In this document: positions 6,905 to 64,000 of the stretch, in pieces
How the letters are laid out: each line of letters begins with the position of its first letter
How positions within the stretch are numbered: the first letter of the stretch is position 1
Source of the DNA: a virus
Lineage: Duplodnaviria > Heunggongvirae > Uroviricota > Caudoviricetes
Length of the DNA stretch: 64,000 nucleotides
Direction: 5' to 3' (one strand)
IMG/VR virus record: IMGVR_UViG_2571042690_000019
Notes under the pieces: model-generated
The model's input: only the letters and a program-made list of their open reading frames with translations
Told to the model about the DNA's origin: nothing
Database searches by the model: none
Position numbers and translations under genes: made by a program

Positions 6905-7207
6905 ATGACCAAAAAAATTAACATAAAGGATTTCAGGGATGCGTGGCTTGATGATTTTTTTGAATTTTCAACACCACATAGAAAGATACCTCCTGATATT
7001 CATATGACATTGTCACGGAAGTTGGACATTATCAATGCCGCAACTACCTGTAAGGATTTAAGATCACCACCAGGTAATCGGTATGAGGAACTGTCAGGGA
7101 AGCTAAATGGCTATTCATCAGTAAGGGTGAATAAGCAATATAGGTTAATTTTTAAGTGGGTTAACGGAAAGGCCGAGGACTTGTATCTCGACCCTCACAA
7201 ATACTAA
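6905..7207 (+). CDS. higB: type II toxin HigB (RelE/ParE superfamily)
   Basis: 100 aa; toxin-first arrangement; C-terminal RLIFKWVNGKAEDLYLD resembles the HigB killer-protein family. Confidence 0.7.
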   Translation: MTKKINIKDFRDAWLDDFFEFSTPHRKIPPDIHMTLSRKLDIINAATTCKDLRSPPGNRYEELSGKLNGYSSVRVNKQYRLIFKWVNGKAEDLYLDPHKY

Positions 7208-7277
7208 AACAGATACCCGGTTACGGACCGGGTTCTGACCAGAGTCCACTTAATACGCACGCTAGTAAGGGCAAAAA

Positions 7278-7616
7278 ATGAAACAGGCAACCAGAAAACC
7301 GACGACCGTAGGTGATATCCTGCTGTACGAATACCTGGAGCCGTTAGAGCTGAAGATCAACGAGTTAGCAGAAATACTTCATGTTCATCGTAACACCGTA
7401 AGCGCTCTTGTTAATAACAATCGTAAGCTAACGATGGATATGGCATATCGCCTGGCAAAAGCATTCGATACTTCTGTAGATTTTTGGATTAATCTTCAGA
7501 CCGCAGTAGATCTGTGGGAAGTCGAAAATGATATGCGCGTCCAGGAAGAGTTAAGTCGTATCAATACTGCTGAAAAATTTATTTCTCAGCGGAACCTGAA
7601 TAAAAAAGCAGCCTGA
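7278..7616 (+). CDS. higA: HigA antitoxin (XRE-family HTH)
   Basis: 112 aa with HTH (INELAEILHVHRNTVSALVNNNRKLTMDMAYRLAKAF), immediately downstream of higB. Confidence 0.7.
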   Translation: MKQATRKPTTVGDILLYEYLEPLELKINELAEILHVHRNTVSALVNNNRKLTMDMAYRLAKAFDTSVDFWINLQTAVDLWEVENDMRVQEELSRINTAEKFISQRNLNKKAA

Positions 7617-12459: not shown

Positions 12460-12767
12460 ACACCTTTAACCACGGAGATGCCGTTCCCTGCACGATAGCT
12501 GCGGGGAACGGAATTCTCCATCAGGTCACGAATTACTCCCGCCTCATGTAGTTCCTCTGTTTCCCAGTATCTGTTTGTCACCAGATCCAGGCTGGCTATG
12601 ACCTTGTGCCGGTCATTCGGCATAGCCAATTTTTCTGCTATAACCATCAGTGAAAACTCTTCATCCAGTAGGATTTGATACCAGACTTTTGCCAGTTCCA
12701 ACTCTCTAATGAGGGTGAAGCGCCGCTCAAGTGTGGCGGCAGAATAAGTGAAATCTATTTTTTTCAT
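12456..12767 (-). CDS. hypothetical protein
   Basis: 103-aa ORF convergent with the secreted-protein pair. Confidence 0.4.
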   Translation of the reverse strand: MKKIDFTYSAATLERRFTLIRELELAKVWYQILLDEEFSLMVIAEKLAMPNDRHKVIASLDLVTNRYWETEELHEAGVIRDLMENSVPRSYRAGNGISVVKGV

Positions 12768-12826
12768 CGTGCGGATAATCCGATTATTTGGCAGTTAAAT
12801 CCCCGGCGTCGCCGGGGATGCAGCAT

Positions 12827-14005
12827 TTAACTAACAATCCAGTCCATAGCAATAACATCCTCTGGAGCTAAATCAATAGCATGGATTTTCCCGTCACGGA
12901 TGGTGCGCCAGTGCTTTCGTGATCCACCTTCGGGCCACACCCATATACCTTCAGGCCAGGAAGAACGACGACACACTGTTGCGTATCCAGTCCTGATCTT
13001 CTCTCTGACGGTATGTAGTGACAGATTATCCTTTGGGCTTTCAGGCACAGGATGGTGGATTGCCTGAAACATCCCCATCTTTGGATGATACCAGCGTTTA
13101 TTGCGTGGTTCTGCCTCCGACATCACCTGCTTAAAGGCTTTCCGGAAGGGGGCACGTGATCCACCTTCGGGCCACACCCATATACCTTCAGGCCAGGAAG
13201 AACGACGACACACTGTTGCGTATCCAGTCCTGATCTTCTCTCTGACGGTATGTAGTGACAGATTATCCTTTGGGCTTTCAGGCACAGGATGGTGGATTGC
13301 CTGAAACATCCCCATCTTTGGATGATACCAGCGTTTATTGCGTGGTTCTGCCTCCGACATCACCTGCTTAAAGGCTTTCCGGAAGGGGGCCAGGGCCACA
13401 ATGGAACGTCGCGCAAGCAAACCGTCGGGAGTTAAAAACTCATGCGTATCTGTGGGGATCCGGTAAGCGTTGACCAGGTTGCGGCATTTGGCTTCAGTCA
13501 GGCCGCATTTCGCCGCTAACTGGCGATAGCCAATGTAGCCTTCCGGAATATTGCCTTTCTTTATTTGCTCGACGGTTTCAGCGACTTTGGTCACTTGTGC
13601 CGATACTTCGGCTACCTGGGCATTAACGGCGTTGATCCGGCGTTCATGCTCAAGATGCATTTGCGCCATTTCAGCCAGAATTTCGGCTTTTGATTTTAAC
13701 TGTACCCGGGCATTCTCCAGTTCGCGCCAGCGGTCCACCAGCCGGGCGGTGAATTCGGGAGAGAGCTGCGCGACGACGACAATACTATCGCGCTTGCCTT
13801 GCTCGCCTTCGAAGAAATAGGCTTTTGTGTATTTATTAGGGCTAAGTGATTGATTATTCTCAACTGTAGCCAATGGCGTATGTTGGATAACTCCTTTAGC
13901 AACAAGTCTTTCGATGCTGCGTTTAACATCAGAGTGACGACTTCCCACCAGTTCCGCGATCTCAATGCTGGTCATTGTCGCTTTTTGAGAGATGGACAGA
14001 TTCAT
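12827..14005 (-). CDS. Rha/Ant-family antirepressor (immI-like module 1) with internal duplication and C-terminal fusion
   Basis: N-terminal Rha-type HTH (MTSIEIAELVGSRHSDVKRSIERL); paralog of 53204..53956; a 79-aa segment occurs twice in tandem; C-terminus matches the separate small ORF 53007..53207 of module 2. Confidence 0.65.
   Translation of the reverse strand: MNLSISQKATMTSIEIAELVGSRHSDVKRSIERLVAKGVIQHTPLATVENNQSLSPNKYTKAYFFEGEQGKRDSIVVVAQLSPEFTARLVDRWRELENARVQLKSKAEILAEMAQMHLEHERRINAVNAQVAEVSAQVTKVAETVEQIKKGNIPEGYIGYRQLAAKCGLTEAKCRNLVNAYRIPTDTHEFLTPDGLLARRSIVALAPFRKAFKQVMSEAEPRNKRWYHPKMGMFQAIHHPVPESPKDNLSLHTVREKIRTGYATVCRRSSWPEGIWVWPEGGSRAPFRKAFKQVMSEAEPRNKRWYHPKMGMFQAIHHPVPESPKDNLSLHTVREKIRTGYATVCRRSSWPEGIWVWPEGGSRKHWRTIRDGKIHAIDLAPEDVIAMDWIVS
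12918..13391. repeat. perfect tandem direct duplication, 2 x 237 bp, inside the antirepressor gene
   Basis: Sequence from about 12918 to 13154 repeats at 13155 to 13391 (gtgatccaccttcgggccacaccc...cttaaaggctttccggaaggggg); 237 is a multiple of 3, so in frame. Confidence 0.9.
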
Positions 14006-39149: not shown

Positions 39150-39225
39150 TGGTGGCCCCTACCGGACTTGAACCGGTGACCGTGCGATTATGAGTCGCCA
39201 GCTCTAACCACTGAGCTAAGGGGCC
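39150..39225 (-). tRNA. tRNA with CAU anticodon (Ile2-lysidine type, or Met)
   Basis: Minus-strand GGCCCCTTAGCTCAGTGGTTAGAGCTGGCGACTCATAATCGC...GGTTCAAGTCCGGTAGGGGCCACCA; close to E. coli ileX from memory. Confidence 0.85.
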
Positions 39226-39236
39226 AATTAGTTTTT

Positions 39237-39350
39237 ATTTTCGACGCCTGAGATTCTTCGCTACTTGTTCTACTCCGTATACGATCACAAGCAGAAATAG
39301 CAAAGACCATCCAGGGTTCTTATCAATATACGTCCAAAAATCCATCATGA
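39237..39350 (-). CDS. tiny membrane peptide (about 37 aa)
   Basis: MMDFWTYIDKNPGWSLLFLLVIVYGVEQVAKNLRRRK; below ORF-track cutoff. Confidence 0.25.
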
Positions 39351-39509
39351 GTTCCTGAACGCAGCTTTAATAATCGGCAATAGCAATACCACAGCTACTG
39401 AAACCAGTGCCCCATCAGCCAACACCGACATCACTTTGCTGGTGAAATCCACCAGCACGGACAAAACGAGAAAACCAATGGCGCACGCAATACGCGCCTT
39501 GCCAATCAT
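39346..39509 (-). CDS. small membrane peptide (54 aa)
   Basis: MIGKARIACAIGFLVLSVLVDFTSKVMSVLADGALVSVAVVLLLPIIKAAFRNS; ATG overlaps the TerB-like stop. Confidence 0.3.
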
Positions 39510-39943
39510 TACAGATAATCTTCCACACGAAGGCCCAAACGACGGCCTACTTCTTCCAGTACTTTGTGTTCTGCTGGCTCGATTTCACCGTCCGCTTCTG
39601 CAATCGTCAGCATGTTAACGAATACTTCTTCCGCTTCTTTTGGATCATTTTTGATATCTTCAATTTCGCGAAGGATATTCATGCGACCAACACGGAAACC
39701 AGCTTCCAGTTGCTCAGTAAAACGGGTGATTGTTGCGGTAATTTCGTTGCCAAAATGACTTAAGCGAGGATTAGAGCGGACAAGCTGATCAAGTTTCGCT
39801 GTTTCTTCCTTTTCGATTTCACCATCTGCGGCAGACACCAACAAACAGCCACCGATAATGGCCTCCATCAGATCGCGATTCTCAACCCTTTTCAGCTCTA
39901 CTTTTGCTGAAGCGACTTTCTTACCGAAAAATTTACCGAACAT
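39509..39943 (-). CDS. TerB-like tellurite-resistance-family protein (TciA-like)
   Basis: 144 aa with the paired-helix acidic pattern of TerB (LLVSAADGEIEKEE...LTIAEADGEIEPAE). Confidence 0.55.
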   Translation of the reverse strand: MFGKFFGKKVASAKVELKRVENRDLMEAIIGGCLLVSAADGEIEKEETAKLDQLVRSNPRLSHFGNEITATITRFTEQLEAGFRVGRMNILREIEDIKNDPKEAEEVFVNMLTIAEADGEIEPAEHKVLEEVGRRLGLRVEDYL

Positions 39944-40098
39944 TGGTTATCCCTCAATAAACATGACGTATTTATTAGGTTGCGGTGCCTGGTGCCTCCA
40001 GGTGACGTTAACCAGTTAACAATTAACGCCGGGATGTTTGACTTAACCACTAAGGAGGATTGTTTTAACTGTTCCGCGTGCGCATAGCCGCATTCACC

Positions 40099-40208
40099 GC
40101 AATGGTAAGAGCACTTGGCTGGCTGGGCGGCGATGACGCCTGTACGCATTTGGTGATCCGGTTCTGCTTCCGGCATTCGCTTAATTAGCCAAATACTCTT
40201 AACGTTGC
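40099..40208. repeat. long-stem hairpin element (family copy 2)
   Basis: Arms gcaatggtaagagcacttgg / ccaaatactcttaacgttgc, about 20 bp with a few mismatches, about 70-nt interior. Confidence 0.4.
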
Positions 40209-40210
40209 AC

Positions 40211-40297
40211 TGGCGGAGAGTAATGGAATCGAACCATCATCGCTTGCGCAATGGGACGGTTTTCAAGACCGTTTGAGCACCATGCTCCCTACTCTCC
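40211..40297 (-). tRNA. non-canonical class-II tRNA-like gene, anticodon UGA (Ser-like)
   Basis: 7-bp acceptor GGAGAGT/ACTCTCC, discriminator G, CCA; anticodon arm ACGGT-CTTGAAA-ACCGT; long variable arm with GCAA tetraloop; T arm TTCGATT; D arm unusually short. Confidence 0.35.
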
Positions 40298-40399
40298 AGT
40301 GATTGTGATGGTCGGTGCTGAACTCCGACACAGGGTTGTAGCAAGCCCCGCAAAGCGCGCACTACTGTAGTTGCGGCACATCAGCCTGTGCATTCACCA

Positions 40400-40488
40400 C
40401 AATGTTGAGAACACTGGTTGTCACGCTGCAACGCAACATTTATTCGTAGATTGGGATATGACCCCGTTACGCCAGTGTTCTCAACGTT
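40400..40488. repeat. long-stem hairpin element (family copy 3)
   Basis: Arms caatgttgagaacactgg / ccagtgttctcaacgtt, 17 bp; interior about 54 nt. Confidence 0.4.
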
Positions 40489-40630
40489 ATAGTGCCGGTT
40501 ACGGTTCCGGCCAGGCCTCTTCCTCAACGGGGTGTTCTCCATACGGACTACCGTTTATTGGTCGTTCCTGCGGTTTATGTTGTGAAGCCAGATGCTTATC
40601 TTCTGGTTGCTTCAAAGAGCTGCACTTCAT

Positions 40631-40698
40631 CACAACGGTAAGAGCACTCGATGCATTTAAGCCAAGCCCCATAAGGGAGAATGCCCTTACCTGTTGTG
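40631..40698. repeat. long-stem hairpin element (family copy 4)
   Basis: Arms cacaacggtaagagca / tgcccttacctgttgtg with a one-base bulge. Confidence 0.4.
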
Positions 40699-40826
40699 TT
40701 GTGATGACCGGTGCTGATCTCCGGCTTGCGGTTATTTCAGACTCTCACGGGCGTTTAATTGCCCCGCCGAACAGCTCTTTTCCGCAATAGCTGCAATGTC
40801 TTTCGCGCATCAGCCTGCGCATTCAT

Positions 40827-40913
40827 CACAACGGTAAGGGTACTTCGTAGGGATTCGAACCCTCTGCCAAGCTCGGCGATCTCCGACGTCGCAAAATACC
40901 CTTACCTGTTGTG
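40827..40913. repeat. long-stem hairpin / tRNA-like remnant (family copy 5)
   Basis: Arms cacaacggtaagggta / tacccttacctgttgtg; interior has a T-arm-like gggattcgaaccc and a D-arm-like hairpin but no anticodon arm; abuts tRNA-Thr. Confidence 0.4.
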
Positions 40914-40914
40914 C

Positions 40915-40990
40915 TGGTGCCGATTAACGGACTCGAACCGCTGACATCCTGCTTACAAGGCAGGCGCTCTACCAACTGAGCTAAACCGGC
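40915..40990 (-). tRNA. tRNA-Thr (anticodon UGU)
   Basis: Minus-strand GCCGGTTTAGCTCAGTTGGTAGAGCGCCTGCCTTGTAAGCAGG...GGTTCGAGTCCGTTAATCGGCACCA. Confidence 0.9.
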
Positions 40991-40992
40991 AT

Positions 40993-41068
40993 TGGCGATG
41001 GTGGATGGATTTGAACCATCGACCCGTTGATTAACAGTCAACCGCTCTAACCGCTGAGCTACACCATC
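40993..41068 (-). tRNA. tRNA-Asn (anticodon GUU)
   Basis: Minus-strand GATGGTGTAGCTCAGCGGTTAGAGCGGTTGACTGTTAATCAAC...GGTTCAAATCCATCCACCATCGCCA. Confidence 0.9.
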
Positions 41069-45500: not shown

Positions 45501-48500
45501 TTAGGCCGCATCGGCGATTATTTTACGCAGTTCATCTACCGAGTAACGCGTAGATACCATCCATGCAGGACGGTCAAAGTTCACATCAGCAACCGGGTTT
45601 GCTTCAAAATTCCAGAAACGTCCGCCAATCTTCTTAATCGCGTCTTTGGCGTTCCGTATTGTCGAGGAACCTGGTTGGTCGGCAATGAGATAAACCGCGC
45701 CAACGTCCTCGCTGACGCTCCACCAGCGCCCGCGAACACGCGCCTTAGCGCGAATCGGCTTATCATTAACCACAATGATATAGTCATCATTCGCCGCTTC
45801 ATCAGCTCTGGCTTCAGCCACTGCCGCCTGCTCTTCTCTTTTGCTTTCAGCCTGCTCAAGCCTTTCCGCGATCTCTGATTCAGTGGCCCCGCCGTTTTTC
45901 AGCGATACATAGTCCTGCCACGTTGCCGATTTGAGCGTATCCGGCAACTCATTCACATAGTCGCCGTCTTTCAACTCACGGGCGCGGCGGGTAGCCATTT
46001 CTACCAGGCGATTAACAGAAACAGCATCAGCAAAATCGTCCTTACTAATGTGTTTTTCATCAAATGCATTGATGACAGCCCCCACCTTAATCCACTGTGC
46101 TGCCGGTGATTCCAGGGGGTTATCAGCCTGAACAATGGCGAGTTTCGCTCCATCTACCCCATTATTCGCCAGCTGTTCCAATGCCGCCCATCCATCTGCA
46201 TCACTGAGTGATTTATATTGCTCAAACAATGCATCGCGCCAGGCCACCAGCGCAGAACGTGTTTTTTCGATCTTCGCCTTAATTTTCGCGATCTTGACCT
46301 GATTAAACATCCGTTCAATATCATCGATATTGCTAAAGGCTTTCATCCTGCCCTGGAATAAACGGTATGCCAGCACGGTCCTCCAGAATGATTCCAGACC
46401 TTCTCCGGACGGTTTGCGGAACAAGCTAAGAATATCTTCAGAAGTGACTTTATTAAGCGAACGACCTGACAGACCACGCCCAGCCATCCAGTTTTCGAAC
46501 TCATGGGCAACATCATCCATCGTTGCCTGTGCGCCCCATGCCTGCATTCCCTGGGTGTAATCATACCCATACAATGCCTGGAGGAATCCCTCGCCGTCCA
46601 CGATATTCAGCGGGTTATCACTGGCTTGTATTTTTGCCACTTCACGCTTCAGCGCCTCGTCGTTGCCATCAGGATATATCCATCGCTCAGGTGCTATATC
46701 CGATGCTCGCCCGATTTTTTGGCCTATCACGCCATCATAGGCCGATGACAGCGCGATCTGACCATCATCTGTGCGATATGCCCAGTATTTAATAGCTGAC
46801 CCACCGCCCCATGCATTACCAGGTTTACCAGCAATAACATTCATTACCCCATTGCGAATAGCATCATAGAACTGATCGCGAGTAAGTATTGTTGATAGCT
46901 GGTGGCACTGAACACCACGCGCAGCCGTTGCGCGCGATTCAGCTACCCCCTCTTCAAAAGTTACCGCTTCAATCACAGAGTCAAACGGCAATGTAACGAT
47001 TGACCCCGGTGCTCGAGCGTAACGACTTGCTCTATCCAGCCAGGCGATACGGCAGAGGTATTGTGCTTTTTCACCGTCAATTTTTTCCACCCGGACAATC
47101 GCTGTTGTTTCGCGATCATCAATGACTGCACGGTAATAACTACCTTTATGCAACAGGATATTCTTGTCAGTGCGCATATATTCCTGTGGGTTCTGAATAA
47201 CATCGATACTGATATCCAGCACACCAGACTTAATAGCGCGCTCCACATCACCACGAGAGCGTTTCATTATGGTATCCGCGTCTTTTGCCCTGGTGATCGC
47301 AAACCGCAGCACCCGCGCACGTTTTCTGTAGCTACTCAACTGCTCAAGCGCGTATTTTTGCCCATTCCTGTTCGTACCCGCTTTTATCAGGTCGTCAAGA
47401 TTGCGCTGGTAATACTCTATCTGTTCCATCGCGCTTTTCAGTTCTGTCTCCATCATGCCGATATCTTTTCCGGCGGCGTTTGCCGCTTTCAGGTAGATAT
47501 CGAGAGCATTGTTGGCCTCGCGCTGTGCTTTCAGTTTCAGACGTTCTTCACGCTCTTGCGCCTGGCGAGCCATGATTGCGCGGCGTTCTTCCGGGTTTGC
47601 CGCCAGCATAATGGCGCGTTCATCAGCATCATCCGCATCACCATTGGCGATCTCTGACATGTCGGATGTCATCACCATCTTGATCCAGTCTTTCTTACGT
47701 TTCAGCGTATCCAGACGGAAGTCGTCGAATGTGCCTTTGCCACAATAGTAGTGAACATTGACCTTTTCTTGCGGTGAACCTACGCGCGCACCGCGCCCAT
47801 TTCGTTGGTCGATACTGGCTGGTGTCCAGGGTAGTGTCAGGTGGTGGATATCGGTTGTCCCGATGTGCAGGTTAATACCTACTTCAGCCTTCTTGTTACA
47901 GATTATGATGCGCGTGCGACCTTCGTTATAGTCGGCGGCAATACCTTCCATGCCCTCAAGGCCAGCATCATTTTTAGCGGAGAGATAATCCTCATATTGG
48001 GCAAGTTTGCTGTAGTAGGTTTCCCATGTCCCTTCTTTGTATTCACCGTTTTTGTTTGGAGTAGGTTCGGTCGGCTTATTCACCTTCTTCAGCTTGATGC
48101 CACCAGCCTGGCTAACTGTCGTCGCATTGATAATGCCAATCTCCTGCTCCGGCATTTGCAGTGCACTGGCGATAATACGGCGCAGCTTCTGGTGCTGGGC
48201 TTTTTCATCAATAAAGACGATCTGCTTACCGTTCTTCAGACCTTCACGAAGATTTTCGATCAGCGCGGCATACTTCGGCGGGATGGGGTGCGACACCTGC
48301 TGCATATCAATGCCGGCAGCCGCAATGGCCTTCAGTATTTCAGCTTCCAGTTCAATGCTGGCACGTATTTCAACATGCGTCGGATGTTCACTAAAAGCGG
48401 TCTTCACTACCTTGCTGGTACGCGTACTGACCAGCCCGCCAGCGCCGTCTTCCTCGGCCTCATCAACATCATCTGCCACTTTACCGCCAGCTACTTTTGG

Positions 48501-51500
48501 CAAGGCATCAGCAATAGCTTTTACCTGGTCTGCAAGCTCAACGGGGAACTGGAATGTAATCGCACTGGCATACAGATCCGGGTCTATAGCAACCTTATCC
48601 ATGTCACGGATGATGGAGAAGATGAAATCATCCGGTTTGTCGTTAGTGATATGCCCGTTTTCATCGACTGTCAGCTCATCATTGCGACTTAACTCCTGAG
48701 CACGCTTACGAAGCTCTTCATAAGCAGTCTCCTGCTCCCCTGTCATCGGGATCTGCAAGGTGTTCTCGATGATGTCGGGAATTTTAACCGTCGCTCCGAC
48801 ATCTGCAGCAGTCTTCAGAGTGGTCCAACGATGGAAAATACCACGCAGGCCGTCAAGGTTCTGGAAGCCCACCAGCCCCTGCTTCTCTTCCACTTCCCCG
48901 GAAATTTTCTGGACCTGAACTGTGGCTGTTTTGCCAAACACACGAACGAAATCATCAGGCGTAATGATGCCCATACGCATCCACTCTTCCTGCGGAATGA
49001 CAGTAGACAGCATGTTGAAGGCATCAATCGGACTGTTCACCAGCGGTGTTGCCGTCAGCATGACTACACCACGCCCGTTGTTGCGTTTCATCATGTACGC
49101 AGCTTTTACAGCCATGTCGCGGGCCATCTTGGATACTGCCGGGTTAGGCAAATATGCCAGTTGTCCCGCTTCACGCCCGGCATTAAAGGAGTTGCGGTAA
49201 TTATGCCCCTCGTCGGCAATCACGCTATCGAAGTTCATATCCTCAAAGTACGGGATATTCTGCTTCTTCGTTGTACCGGTATTCGCGGCCTGATCCTTAA
49301 TCTTGTTCTTCTTCTGCGCATCACGGTGTTTACCGGACGCCAGGTCAAGACGCCCCATTTCCACAGCATTAAAGACAGCTTGCTGTGAGTTCTCCTCGAT
49401 GGTTTTTTCTCGTAGCGGGATAGACGCGAATTGTTCTTTTGTCATGATGACCGTTCGCCAATTTGACGACGGGATCATGTTCATACGCTGAACGATAACG
49501 GCGCTGGCGGACTCTTTCACAACATTTCTGGTAAGAGGCTGCCCGTTACTGTCGAGGCGTGGTTCGCCATTTTCATCAAGCACCGGCGCGGTCAGAATAT
49601 TTCCGCTGTCATCACGAACTTCATCCAAACCGATAAACATCATATTGGCGAAGGCATCAGCACTGTAGAAACTCTGTGCCTCGTGATACCAGTTCTGATA
49701 AACCGCCTTCGGAACAACAATACACGTGCGTTTAGTGCGACCTGTTTCGAAGTTATACGCCTCAAGCGCAAGCGCGGTCGTGGTTTTACCCAGCCCGGTA
49801 CCAAATCCCATGATGCCGCGCCCATCTTCTGACAAGCGCCGAACTTCTTCATTCTGATAAGTAAGAGGAATGCGCTTTCCACTAAGCCCTTCCAGGCCAA
49901 GCGGTGCGTCAGAATGCGTGAACGGAATGAAACCATTGAATGCGTCGTTATACTCGCGGGCTATCTGATCAGCCTGCGGGTGAGTGCGTAACCAGTCGTT
50001 AAAACTAACTTCCAGTTGAGCAATTTTATCCAGGTACTCGTTAGCGTTCTGCCCACGCGGTTTAACACCGTTCAGGTAGTTTTCTAACTGGTTCAGGAAG
50101 CCGTCTTTATTGTTGGCCTTCTTGAACTCATTCCCGTTTTTGCCGTTTACGGTTCGTAGCTGATAGCCGGTAAATACACCGTCCTTACCTTCGTAATCGT
50201 CCGGAGATACCAGAATGCCATCGACGACCTTCAGATCAGGTTCAGTGTACTTAAACTCGTCATAGCCCTGCTCTGCCAGGAACTCTTTTATCAAGCGGCG
50301 ATCCAGCCAGCGGGCATTCAGATTAACGGTGACTTTATTTAGTGGCGTGAAAATACGTTTCTCTTCGATTTTCGCCAACTGACGCTCAAAGTTCGCTTTC
50401 TGCTCACCTGTTGACGCATCACGCCAGCCCATCAGCAATGCTGTTTTGGTTGCAATATCGCCGCTGGTGGCGCGGTCCATCGGCAGCAGGCAGCCATACC
50501 CATCAATAGCGATATCATCAAATTTCGCCAGGTATTCAAGGGCCGCGTCGTCGTCCTCTGGCAGTTCACCAGCAAACGCCTCACGAAAGTCTCCCAGCGT
50601 TATAGGATTAAGGGCTACATCACTGAAAAGATGTGCTATCACTTGTTCAGGACGTGTAAAGTCAATACCGGCAGCACCATCCGTTACATCAAGTCGCCCT
50701 GCCAGAAGGTCAGAAGTGGAACCATCCTGTTTCACATTGCCAGTGAACGTCATCCAGTTTTTAGCGCCAGCTTCAGCAAGCCCATTCAGCTTAATGGCGT
50801 GCGGTGGTCCATACTTCGCAACTTCTGCTGCCGCCAGGCGGGATGCATCTGCCAGTTTGTCATCAACGTTCACACCCAGGTTACGCAAATCAAGTGCCTT
50901 GTTGATCAACTGACCTATCAGCGCACCGCGCATAACGCGCTCCCTGTCTTTTTCTCGCTGCTTGCCAGCAAAGCGAATCATTGCTGCCACTTCATCACTG
51001 ACAACCGATGGATAGTCGGACGCGATCGCCGATATCTGGTCCCATGACAAAGCCAGAATCCCGTTTGTTGACTGGAACGCGATCTGCAGATCGCCAAACG
51101 TCGAAACACCATATCGACTTACATCAAGCGCGGAGGATTTGGTTGTCGTGTCCTTAACCCATTTCAGACCATCAAACTCATGCCAGATACCGCCTACAAG
51201 GCGTTTATCGCCCACTTTCGCGCCCTGCCATGCCTGAGTAGTTACGCCGAGCAAATCCCAATTGATGCGACTATCAAAGCGACGAGATAGCGCGGTTTTC
51301 ATCGACTCATTGGATACACGACCGTCTTTTTTCACCACCAAGGTATTGCGGAAGCTGGTACGTTCCATGTCGCCGTAAACAAATCGCTTCCCTTCGGTTG
51401 TAAACCATTTTCCTTTGAGGAAGGTATCCCAAAGGACGTTTGCCGATTTGAGTGTTGAATCATCCGTGTCGGGGATCATCTCCAGGAAGGTTTCCGGGTG

Positions 51501-52337
51501 TTTACGCAATACCCATACGTCCACCACGGTATCTGTACCGGATTCGCTGAACGTACCAGAAGGCATACGATGTGCGCCCAAAAATTCCGCTTTACGGCTG
51601 ACTTTATCGCGCAATTTTTTATATTTCGCACCATCGGTCATGCCATTCGGCACCACCAATACGATAAGCCCACCAGGTTTAACCTTGTCGATCGTGCGCA
51701 GCACAAAGTAATTGCCAACGTTCTTCTCGTTTGCATATGCCGGATCAAGCCCGGCGACACCGGAACGCCCTTCACCAAACGGTACGTTACCAACAGCGTG
51801 ATCATACATTGCGTCTTTCGCCGCCAGCGCCTCAAACGCCCCGATATTCACATCGTCTTCCGGGTGCAAAAGCTGGTTTATTCGACCGGAAATCTGAGAC
51901 AGTTCGGCGCTGGTCATTATCATGCCCTGCCGTTTTGTCTCCTGGAAAATACCTGTGCCCGCTGATGGTTCCAGTACGTGCCCGCCATCAATACCGTAGT
52001 CAGCAAACAGATCCCATATACCTTCAGCCATAAACTGTGGCGTGTAGTATTCGTATTGGCTGCCCTCACCATCTGTCAGGCCGCCTTCACCGGTATACCC
52101 GGCAAGAATCTGACGTTGTTCGTCAGTTAATTTCGCCCCATCGAAGCCGGGCGGAAGGGAATTAAGAAGATTTACTGCGGCATTATTTGCTGCCCGGCGT
52201 GTTTTCTGAATACTGACGCCATCGGCTTTCCTGACGCCAAAGGTCGCAACAGCACGTAATTTATGCAACCGACTAACAATTTCAATCAGTTCGCCTAAGC
52301 TGGAGGCTTCACTGATTGAATGAAGTAGTTTGTCCAA
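45501..52337 (-). CDS. darB: giant DarB-like protein: N-terminal adenine-MTase-like domain plus SF2 helicase
   Basis: 2278 aa (P1 DarB about 2255 from memory); N-terminal MTase-like motif (HAVGNVPFG); helicase Walker A GFGTGLGKTTTALALEAY and DEGH box IADEGHNYRN. Confidence 0.6.
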   Translation of the reverse strand: MDKLLHSISEASSLGELIEIVSRLHKLRAVATFGVRKADGVSIQKTRRAANNAAVNLLNSLPPGFDGAKLTDEQRQILAGYTGEGGLTDGEGSQYEYYTPQFMAEGIWDLFADYGIDGGHVLEPSAGTGIFQETKRQGMIMTSAELSQISGRINQLLHPEDDVNIGAFEALAAKDAMYDHAVGNVPFGEGRSGVAGLDPAYANEKNVGNYFVLRTIDKVKPGGLIVLVVPNGMTDGAKYKKLRDKVSRKAEFLGAHRMPSGTFSESGTDTVVDVWVLRKHPETFLEMIPDTDDSTLKSANVLWDTFLKGKWFTTEGKRFVYGDMERTSFRNTLVVKKDGRVSNESMKTALSRRFDSRINWDLLGVTTQAWQGAKVGDKRLVGGIWHEFDGLKWVKDTTTKSSALDVSRYGVSTFGDLQIAFQSTNGILALSWDQISAIASDYPSVVSDEVAAMIRFAGKQREKDRERVMRGALIGQLINKALDLRNLGVNVDDKLADASRLAAAEVAKYGPPHAIKLNGLAEAGAKNWMTFTGNVKQDGSTSDLLAGRLDVTDGAAGIDFTRPEQVIAHLFSDVALNPITLGDFREAFAGELPEDDDAALEYLAKFDDIAIDGYGCLLPMDRATSGDIATKTALLMGWRDASTGEQKANFERQLAKIEEKRIFTPLNKVTVNLNARWLDRRLIKEFLAEQGYDEFKYTEPDLKVVDGILVSPDDYEGKDGVFTGYQLRTVNGKNGNEFKKANNKDGFLNQLENYLNGVKPRGQNANEYLDKIAQLEVSFNDWLRTHPQADQIAREYNDAFNGFIPFTHSDAPLGLEGLSGKRIPLTYQNEEVRRLSEDGRGIMGFGTGLGKTTTALALEAYNFETGRTKRTCIVVPKAVYQNWYHEAQSFYSADAFANMMFIGLDEVRDDSGNILTAPVLDENGEPRLDSNGQPLTRNVVKESASAVIVQRMNMIPSSNWRTVIMTKEQFASIPLREKTIEENSQQAVFNAVEMGRLDLASGKHRDAQKKNKIKDQAANTGTTKKQNIPYFEDMNFDSVIADEGHNYRNSFNAGREAGQLAYLPNPAVSKMARDMAVKAAYMMKRNNGRGVVMLTATPLVNSPIDAFNMLSTVIPQEEWMRMGIITPDDFVRVFGKTATVQVQKISGEVEEKQGLVGFQNLDGLRGIFHRWTTLKTAADVGATVKIPDIIENTLQIPMTGEQETAYEELRKRAQELSRNDELTVDENGHITNDKPDDFIFSIIRDMDKVAIDPDLYASAITFQFPVELADQVKAIADALPKVAGGKVADDVDEAEEDGAGGLVSTRTSKVVKTAFSEHPTHVEIRASIELEAEILKAIAAAGIDMQQVSHPIPPKYAALIENLREGLKNGKQIVFIDEKAQHQKLRRIIASALQMPEQEIGIINATTVSQAGGIKLKKVNKPTEPTPNKNGEYKEGTWETYYSKLAQYEDYLSAKNDAGLEGMEGIAADYNEGRTRIIICNKKAEVGINLHIGTTDIHHLTLPWTPASIDQRNGRGARVGSPQEKVNVHYYCGKGTFDDFRLDTLKRKKDWIKMVMTSDMSEIANGDADDADERAIMLAANPEERRAIMARQAQEREERLKLKAQREANNALDIYLKAANAAGKDIGMMETELKSAMEQIEYYQRNLDDLIKAGTNRNGQKYALEQLSSYRKRARVLRFAITRAKDADTIMKRSRGDVERAIKSGVLDISIDVIQNPQEYMRTDKNILLHKGSYYRAVIDDRETTAIVRVEKIDGEKAQYLCRIAWLDRASRYARAPGSIVTLPFDSVIEAVTFEEGVAESRATAARGVQCHQLSTILTRDQFYDAIRNGVMNVIAGKPGNAWGGGSAIKYWAYRTDDGQIALSSAYDGVIGQKIGRASDIAPERWIYPDGNDEALKREVAKIQASDNPLNIVDGEGFLQALYGYDYTQGMQAWGAQATMDDVAHEFENWMAGRGLSGRSLNKVTSEDILSLFRKPSGEGLESFWRTVLAYRLFQGRMKAFSNIDDIERMFNQVKIAKIKAKIEKTRSALVAWRDALFEQYKSLSDADGWAALEQLANNGVDGAKLAIVQADNPLESPAAQWIKVGAVINAFDEKHISKDDFADAVSVNRLVEMATRRARELKDGDYVNELPDTLKSATWQDYVSLKNGGATESEIAERLEQAESKREEQAAVAEARADEAANDDYIIVVNDKPIRAKARVRGRWWSVSEDVGAVYLIADQPGSSTIRNAKDAIKKIGGRFWNFEANPVADVNFDRPAWMVSTRYSVDELRKIIADAA

Positions 52338-63613: not shown

Positions 63614-63716
63614 ACCCCTCCAGAAATAACATCTAATGCGCCACTAACTTAGTCAGTTTGTTATTTCCTTACAGGACATCTTCTAGGATCGTATCCTTAG
63701 CATACAAGGGAGACAT

Positions 63717-63760
63717 ATGCTTATTGGATACATTCGCATATCAACAAATGATGATGCGCC
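63717..63760 (+). pseudogene. N-terminal fragment of a serine invertase gene (Cin/Gin/Hin type)
   Basis: ATG with AAGGGAG RBS encodes MLIGYIRISTNDD (compare Cin/Gin MLIGYVRVSTNDQ), then the frame runs into unrelated sequence antisense to the invertase C-terminus below. Confidence 0.4.
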
Positions 63761-63829
63761 GCGCGATAAATGCACTCTATCTTGTGCGATAAATGGCATC
63801 CACGCGGCGTTTCATTATTTGAAAAAGAA

Positions 63830-64000
63830 TTACATTTCAGGTTGCGTTATGACAGTCCCAACAGGGTGATAGCGGTAGATCGTTGACAGTCCAATATCAT
63901 AGATAATTGCCAGCCGCTTTCTGTCATACCCTTTCTGGAGCAATCTTGCGATCTGCTCATGCTGCTCCTTCGTCAGTTTCGGGCGACGTCCTCCAACTCT
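63830..64000 (-). CDS. serine DNA invertase, C-terminal HTH part (partial; gene continues beyond window end)
   Basis: Minus-strand translation ...RVGGRRPKLTKEQHEQIARLLQKGYDRKRLAIIYDIGLSTIYRYHPVGTVITQPEM-stop matches the Cin/Gin/Hin C-terminal HTH. Confidence 0.6.
   Translation of the reverse strand, partial: RVGGRRPKLTKEQHEQIARLLQKGYDRKRLAIIYDIGLSTIYRYHPVGTVITQPEM

Follow-up and report, generated by a model that had tools for sequence, protein, structure and literature searches.

The right end of the window, by which we mean the whole analysed stretch of 64,000 nucleotides, joins parts of two different mobile elements. It lies in a D6-like (P1-family) phage-plasmid whose own invertase gene, cin, breaks off where the terminus of a transposable phage begins, followed by an invertase gene in the opposite orientation. 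The best explanation, and in our view a likely one, is that a Mu-like phage inserted into cin and that homologous recombination between two tail-fibre genes S then deleted the rest. The features concerned are as follows (L003 is plasmid pB2C_96).

63614..63716, plus strand: lydA-cin intergenic region, with the cin upstream region and ribosome-binding site; collinear with D6 to 63751 (99.1%)
63717..63751, plus strand: 5' stump of the resident cin, nt 1-35 (codons 1-11 and 2 nt), from the D6 cin alignment
63752..63829, no strand assigned: tail-fibre/cargo-side terminus of a Bcepmuvirus-like transposable phage; the same end stands beside unrelated flanks
63830..64000, minus strand: 3' part of an invertase gene (C-terminal 56 codons and stop), from the translation and from the full gene in identical plasmids
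L003 10058-10083 and 10497-10522, plus strand: crossover sites A and B, 26 bp, alignable with cix/gix
L003 12100-12125, minus strand: crossover site C, inside S, 26 bp, alignable with cix/gix

The final 2 kb of the window match Escherichia phage D6 at 99% identity. On the minus strand the match takes in darA, hdf, lydB and lydA; it then runs into the beginning of cin, a plus-strand gene. At the same position, D6 is annotated with a holin (lydA, minus strand) and a DNA invertase (cin, plus strand). D6 homology ends at 63751, 35 nt inside cin, with the upstream intergenic region conserved. Hundreds of E. coli chromosomes carry DNA with 100% identity to the sequence from 63752 onward. An assembly artefact is ruled out, because the same junction recurs with identical sequence in 12 complete E. 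coli assemblies, 16 PLSDB plasmids (counted at coverage of at least 80%, in a set that overlaps the E. coli assemblies) and 4 IMG/VR contigs. The PLSDB carriers are plasmids of 89-98 kb from human, dog and poultry in several countries. One carrier, p1_000533, has an InsQ/TnpB-family gene between ddrB-like and ddrA-like genes (L083 1203-2411). Elsewhere in the window, four tRNA genes (Met-CAT, Ser-TGA, Thr-TGT, Asn-GTT) cluster on the minus strand at 39150-41068, and the position of a 2278-codon ORF at 45501-52337 suggests darB.

On the plus strand, the ribosome-binding site AAGGGAG (63706-63712) precedes an ATG at 63717 that opens a 50-codon ORF (63717-63869; beginning MLIGYIRISTNDD...), overlapping the minus-strand gene in antisense. 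A sequence-only reading of this DNA had described such a start, with a good ribosome-binding site and nearly the Cin/Gin N-terminus, running antisense into the C-terminal helix-turn-helix part of an invertase, and this description is accurate: the ORF extends to 63869 and overlaps the gene at 63830-64000. The cin-derived part of the ORF is confined to nt 63717-63751 (35 nt, 11 2/3 codons), which match D6 cin at 33 of 35 positions versus 29 of 35 for the incoming invertase's own 5' end. Because of the match to D6 cin and the conserved upstream intergenic region (99.1%), we regard the stump as the genuine start of the resident cin, syntenic rather than a chance match. The proposed breakpoint inside an invertase gene lies in the resident cin, after nt 35. 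No full-length cin ending at cixL is present in the plasmid; the remainder of cin, cixL and cixR are all missing. The 50-aa chimeric product had no Pfam match, and a promoter and terminator scan across the junction gave nothing beyond shuffled expectation. The stump and the phage terminus are most likely scars without function, and the ORF at 63717 should not count as a gene in annotation.

The DNA that follows the stump begins with 5'-TG at 63752-63753 (5'-TGATGCGCCGCGCGATAAATG...) and carries two subterminal GCGATAAATG boxes (also given as GATAAATG) at 63763-63772 and 63786-63795. It spans the whole gap from the cin remnant to the minus-strand stop codon (63752-63829). The two invertase pieces thus face each other, as had been noted, but their distance is 78 bp and not about 70. 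In every copy, homology to the window starts at this same base, 5'-TGATGCGCCGCGCGATAAATG, and the flanks differ. Chromosomal termini lie next to ycaL/aroA (L004, L002), on the tmaR side (FORC_031, L005) and on the ppiD side (strain 503440, L013), and in IMG/VR, where an exact-pattern scan returned 65 such termini, 40 different outer flanks occur. The same layout, TGA.G and then boxes, recurs at both ends of the BcepMu record and at the opposite end of the E. coli prophage. The boxes of BcepMu-type ends read GATA(A/T)(A/T)T and occupy offsets 12-21 and 34-43; in the window, the box offsets equal those at the BcepMu genome ends. We interpret the boxes as putative transposase-binding repeats. TG...CA termini are characteristic of BcepMu-type rve elements (PMC2628397). 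Compared with the empty K-12 site, the AVS0247 prophage in ycaL is inserted precisely: its ends read TG...CA, and 6 bp of target (GAAGAA) are duplicated. Taken together, the constant start base beside many flanks, the TG...CA ends with duplication and the BcepMu box layout argue that 63752-63829 is a transposable-phage terminus.

The chromosomal copies are complete transposable prophages in BcepMu gene order. Their rve (DDE) transposase is 100% identical to that of Escherichia phage PhiKM (Bcepmuvirus) and 68% identical to that of BcepMu; they also encode an AAA+ partner, Gam, GemA, Mor, a Portal_Mu portal, Mu F- and G-like proteins and a P2-like tail (Pfam: rve for the transposase, AAA_22 for the AAA+ partner). 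Their invertase gene lies at the tail-fibre (cargo) end. The AVS0247 prophage (L004 20001 to L008 18512), which served as far-end reference, splits ycaL after codon 3, beside aroA; the insertion site is the same in ST131-type genomes, and RefSeq starts ycaL downstream. The FORC_031 prophage (L005/L006) was set aside; it is a defective derivative without transposase and AAA+ genes that abuts CP4-44-like genes. Canonical Mu is ruled out as donor, both by the BcepMu-like transposase and gene order and by its match to this DNA, which is limited to the inside of gin (75% nucleotide identity).

Translation of 63830-64000 on the minus strand gives ...RVGGRRPKLTKEQHEQIARLLQKGYDRKRLAIIYDIGLSTIYRYHPVGTVITQPEM (also ...GRRPKLTKEQHEQIARLLQKGYDRKRLAIIYDIGLSTIYRYHPVGTVITQPEM) followed by the stop, the HTH_7 end of a serine invertase. 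Extension past 64000, which the sequence-only reading had proposed as a check, shows in identical plasmids a full-length gene of 573 bp and 190 aa with its own N-terminus (L003 9431-10003, window-equivalent 63830-64402). Pfam recognizes Resolvase (E=8e-51) and HTH_7 (E=1e-12) domains, to which NCBIfam added nothing. The protein has the motif YIRVSTNDQ with the catalytic Ser9, aligned to Gin and Cin, and shares 77% amino acid identity with Mu Gin, 73% with D6 Cin and 84% with the Min-type invertase. Its nucleotide identity to D6 cin is about 65% ungapped and 68.8% by blastn, and it is identical to the invertase of the chromosomal transposable prophages. Transcription runs towards the terminus. 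The gene encodes a Din-family serine DNA invertase from another element than the resident cin; it is intact and probably the active one. Its nt 19-90, where a Fis-dependent recombinational enhancer would lie, are 75-76% identical to the P1/Mu enhancer stretches, a modest margin over the gene-wide ungapped value of 65-69%. The suggestion of a decayed second invertase is also sound, inasmuch as two invertase genes are present and one of them, cin, has decayed.

Phage-derived DNA in the plasmid is limited to L003 9352 to about 12686-13800, and the D6 backbone is back at 13802. A whole prophage inside the plasmid is ruled out, since the D6 backbone returns 4.4 kb further on; the plasmid copy has no transposase and no second end and is a remnant, not a functional element. 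L003 9352-12686 is 95% identical to the chromosomal prophages. D6 homology restarts only inside the tail-fibre gene S (L003 13802, about codon 193 of D6 S), so that about 3.3-4.4 kb of the cargo end survive. The plasmid S protein (928 aa) is D6-like over residues 1-203 (95% identity) and about 80% identical to the prophage S from about residue 173 to 928, and the two matches overlap at the Phage_fiber_2 motif AATPKAVKAAYDLA, common to both parents. Plasmid S is therefore a chimera, in which an N-terminus of D6 type is fused to distal sequence from the phage. Within the hybrid S, 300-bp repeats are only 74-80% identical to the sampled prophages; hence, either the exact donor is unsampled or S was remodelled later. 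Five such Phage_fiber_2 repeats, mutually 99-100% identical, stand head to tail at L003 12275-13774 (window-equivalent about 66674-68173). Across the plasmids with the same junction, S varies from 1836 to 3531 bp in length, which suggests changes in repeat copy number.

The edge of an invertible tail-fibre segment had been predicted just past the window, and three crossover sites are indeed found there, at window-equivalent positions of about 64457, 64896 and 66499. They share GGTTT(G/A)GG(G/A)GAA and a central TT (..AAACG TT GGTTTGGGGGAA or ..TTACC TT GGTTTAGGAGAA), can be aligned with cix and gix, and border inverted repeats of 229 bp on their outer side. Of the recommended search for 26-bp sites and inverted repeats, the part beyond the window thus succeeded; near the junction within the window no cix/gix-like site was found, only chance-level core matches with two mismatches. 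The choice open to S comprises three collar-domain C-termini (two of them in extra cassettes), with one assembly gene. Inverting pB2C_96 first between sites A and C and then between A and B gives the cassette order seen in pKY1497_2 (L011), and in other plasmids with the same junction S is fused to different cassettes, i.e. further states. Judging from these plasmid comparisons, alternative orientations of the segment do seem to occur, and the module is probably an inversion switch that provides multiple-inversion control of host range by the incoming invertase.

We propose that a Bcepmuvirus-like phage would have inserted into cin after nt 35, with its tail-fibre end towards the cin start. 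Insertion is inferred because the joint falls exactly at the phage's terminal 5'-TG; the transposition into cin remains an inferred step, as the plasmid has lost the opposite phage end together with any target duplication. A crossover between phage S and plasmid S, in direct orientation and at the shared Phage_fiber_2 motif, would then have removed everything in between: the prophage apart from its cargo end, cin beyond the stump and the old C segment. The hybrid nature of S suggests that such a crossover took place. What would be left behind is the 35-nt stump, the 78-bp terminus, a complete invertase gene, three crossover sites, the cassettes and a chimeric S. That Bcepmu-like phages do land in plasmids follows from the conjugative IncFIA/IncFII plasmid NZ_CP043512.1 (L086) of Enterobacter kobei, which carries a whole related prophage (nucleotide identity of the transposase gene, 90%). 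However, a D6- or P1-like plasmid with a whole prophage in cin, the expected intermediate, was not present among 72,556 PLSDB plasmids. Three further observations count against the proposal: the 300-bp repeats of the hybrid S are only 74-80% identical to those of the sampled prophages; another D6-type junction is found 17 bp further inside cin, for which a second insertion or else a flush deletion has to be assumed; and Min-type plasmids have 67 bp between the cin remnant and the terminus, because of which the Min-type join cannot be a simple strand transfer.

The missing intermediate would be accounted for if the joint had the same origin but the module had reached a D6-like plasmid by a transduction-like double crossover, with one exchange in the lyd/cin flank and one in S, from phage DNA that had been packaged by the headful together with plasmid flank past its tail-fibre end. 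Packaging of host DNA past the right end is a trait of Mu-type phages, and this route yields the same end product. No sequence feature separates it from deletion in situ; we consider it unlikely. The junction could also be unrelated to transposition, if Cin/Gin-type recombination at a quasi-site in cin, or random illegitimate recombination, had met the phage terminus by accident. Din invertases do use quasi-sites, and the Min-type join is not flush with the terminus. However, nothing at 63740-63765 resembles a crossover site, and the foreign DNA starts at the exact base of the element end, as it does in more than 40 unrelated contexts, which makes such a coincidence very improbable. A crossover site at the breakpoint was rejected, the window offering only core matches with two mismatches, at chance level.

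The sequence-only reading took the pieces for fragments of a single invertase gene, split by inversion or another rearrangement so that its N- and C-terminal parts now face each other. Their convergent arrangement, 78 bp apart, agrees with this, but other observations contradict it. The gene on the minus strand is complete and has a start of its own, it has only about 65% (ungapped) or 68.8% (blastn) nucleotide identity to D6 cin, and it is identical to a chromosomal transposable prophage invertase; the stump, in turn, is closer to D6 cin (33/35) than to the 5' end of the new gene (29/35). The complete gene in identical plasmids refutes the split-gene inversion, which we regard as almost certainly wrong: the two pieces belong to different elements. 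Nor is the breakpoint an invertase crossover site: it is the terminus of a transposable phage, with no cix/gix-like site near it in the window. That reading had itself named a complete minus-strand gene, with no inversion sites nearby, as evidence against it. This applies in large part, since the gene is complete; inversion sites do exist, beyond the window.

Insertion into cin followed by deletion through S can be compared with related scars in other plasmids. In the D6-like plasmids of W444 and CUVET16-559, the same terminus is joined at cin nt 52, 17 bp deeper. At the W444-type junction (L010 7297-7400; also NZ_CP150992.1), 17 bp of the cin start are duplicated in tandem, and of the invertase only the last 32 bp are left, after which a different gp53-like tail-fibre cassette follows. 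Two insertions, or else a single flush deletion, would account for the nt-52 joint. In Min-type P1/P7-like plasmids such as p2-S1-IND-02-A (L012 3697-4005), a cin remnant of nt 1-177 with stop codons is followed by 67 bp of no assigned origin, a variant terminus (TGATGTGCC...; compared by means of the related prophage L013) and a reversed invertase. Among the IMG/VR termini, the Min type is the most frequent context (22 of 65). When its donor terminus was sought in E. coli chromosomes by megablast, matches began only inside the invertase gene. The GenBank record of P1 equates p15B nt 7147-7408 with the P1 cin upstream region and the first 173 nt of cin, a spacing that fits the Min-type arrangement. 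A reversed Min-like invertase has also been described in pJIE250-3 (PMC6906374).

The exchange of Cin for a foreign, opposite invertase next to a cin stump is thus already known for p15B-type plasmids, and the D6-type scar is a second, independent example beside the p15B/Min type. In both, the Cin module of a P1-family plasmid is replaced by a reversed foreign Din-family invertase with several tail-fibre cassettes and a neighbouring cin 5' remnant. The Min type differs in its P1-like rather than D6-like backbone, in having cin nt 1-177, 67 bp and then the terminus in place of a flush joint at nt 35, and in its seven tail-protein cassette ORFs (L012 annotation), versus fewer in L003 with three crossover sites. 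The p15B Min system has six crossover sites. In our literature search, a terminus beside the D6-type or Min-type invertase was not described and neither substitution (D6-type or p15B Min) was attributed to a transposable-phage end; the early p15B papers lay outside the reach of this search and may hold priority.

Similarities extend to the classical inversion systems. As in the Mu G segment with gin, the invertase lies by the right end and is transcribed endward, the tail fibre has alternative C-termini and the site cores are similar. Unlike Mu, which has MuA and its own gene order, the donor combines BcepMu order with a transposase of the Tn552/rve type; it lacks com/mom between invertase and end, and its module consists of three sites, short cassettes for collar domains and only one assembly gene. 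With Cin and the C segment of P1/D6 the new module shares the slot between lydA and S, the role of a host-range switch and a 73% identical recombinase. However, cin of P1/D6 points at the segment and has its stop codon within cixL, whereas the new gene points away from it, cin is cut to 35 nt and both cix sites are lost. The donor resembles BcepMu and other Bcepmuvirus members (PhiKM in E. coli) in its TGA.G end, box offsets, transposase and gene order; the plasmid remnant, unlike BcepMu, is an immobile fossil without transposase and second end.

In the P1 record (L085 2679-2750), cin nt 19-90 are annotated as the enhancer of Cin-mediated inversion, and the D6-type joints at nt 35 and nt 52 both lie inside this Fis-dependent stretch. 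With both joints inside nt 19-90, it is possible that transposition favours the Cin enhancer as a target. The capture at cin nt 35 (D6 type) and that in the p15B/Min type are clearly independent of each other, which makes at least two events, and the nt-52 joint is a possible third capture. A broader idea, which we put forward tentatively and with more doubt than conviction, is that Bcepmu-like phages inserting in or beside cin might time and again provide P1-family phage-plasmids with a new host-range switch, through capture of the phage's cargo end.

Overall, an odd gene arrangement is explained as a legible recombination scar, an instance of ordinary mosaicism with an unusually clear mechanism. 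It offers base-pair evidence for what would be a two-step swap of a host-range module between a plasmid-prophage and a transposable phage, and thus for one route by which phages may exchange such modules. If the broader idea of repeated capture is true, the same route could underlie the invertible tail-fibre module common to Mu and P1.
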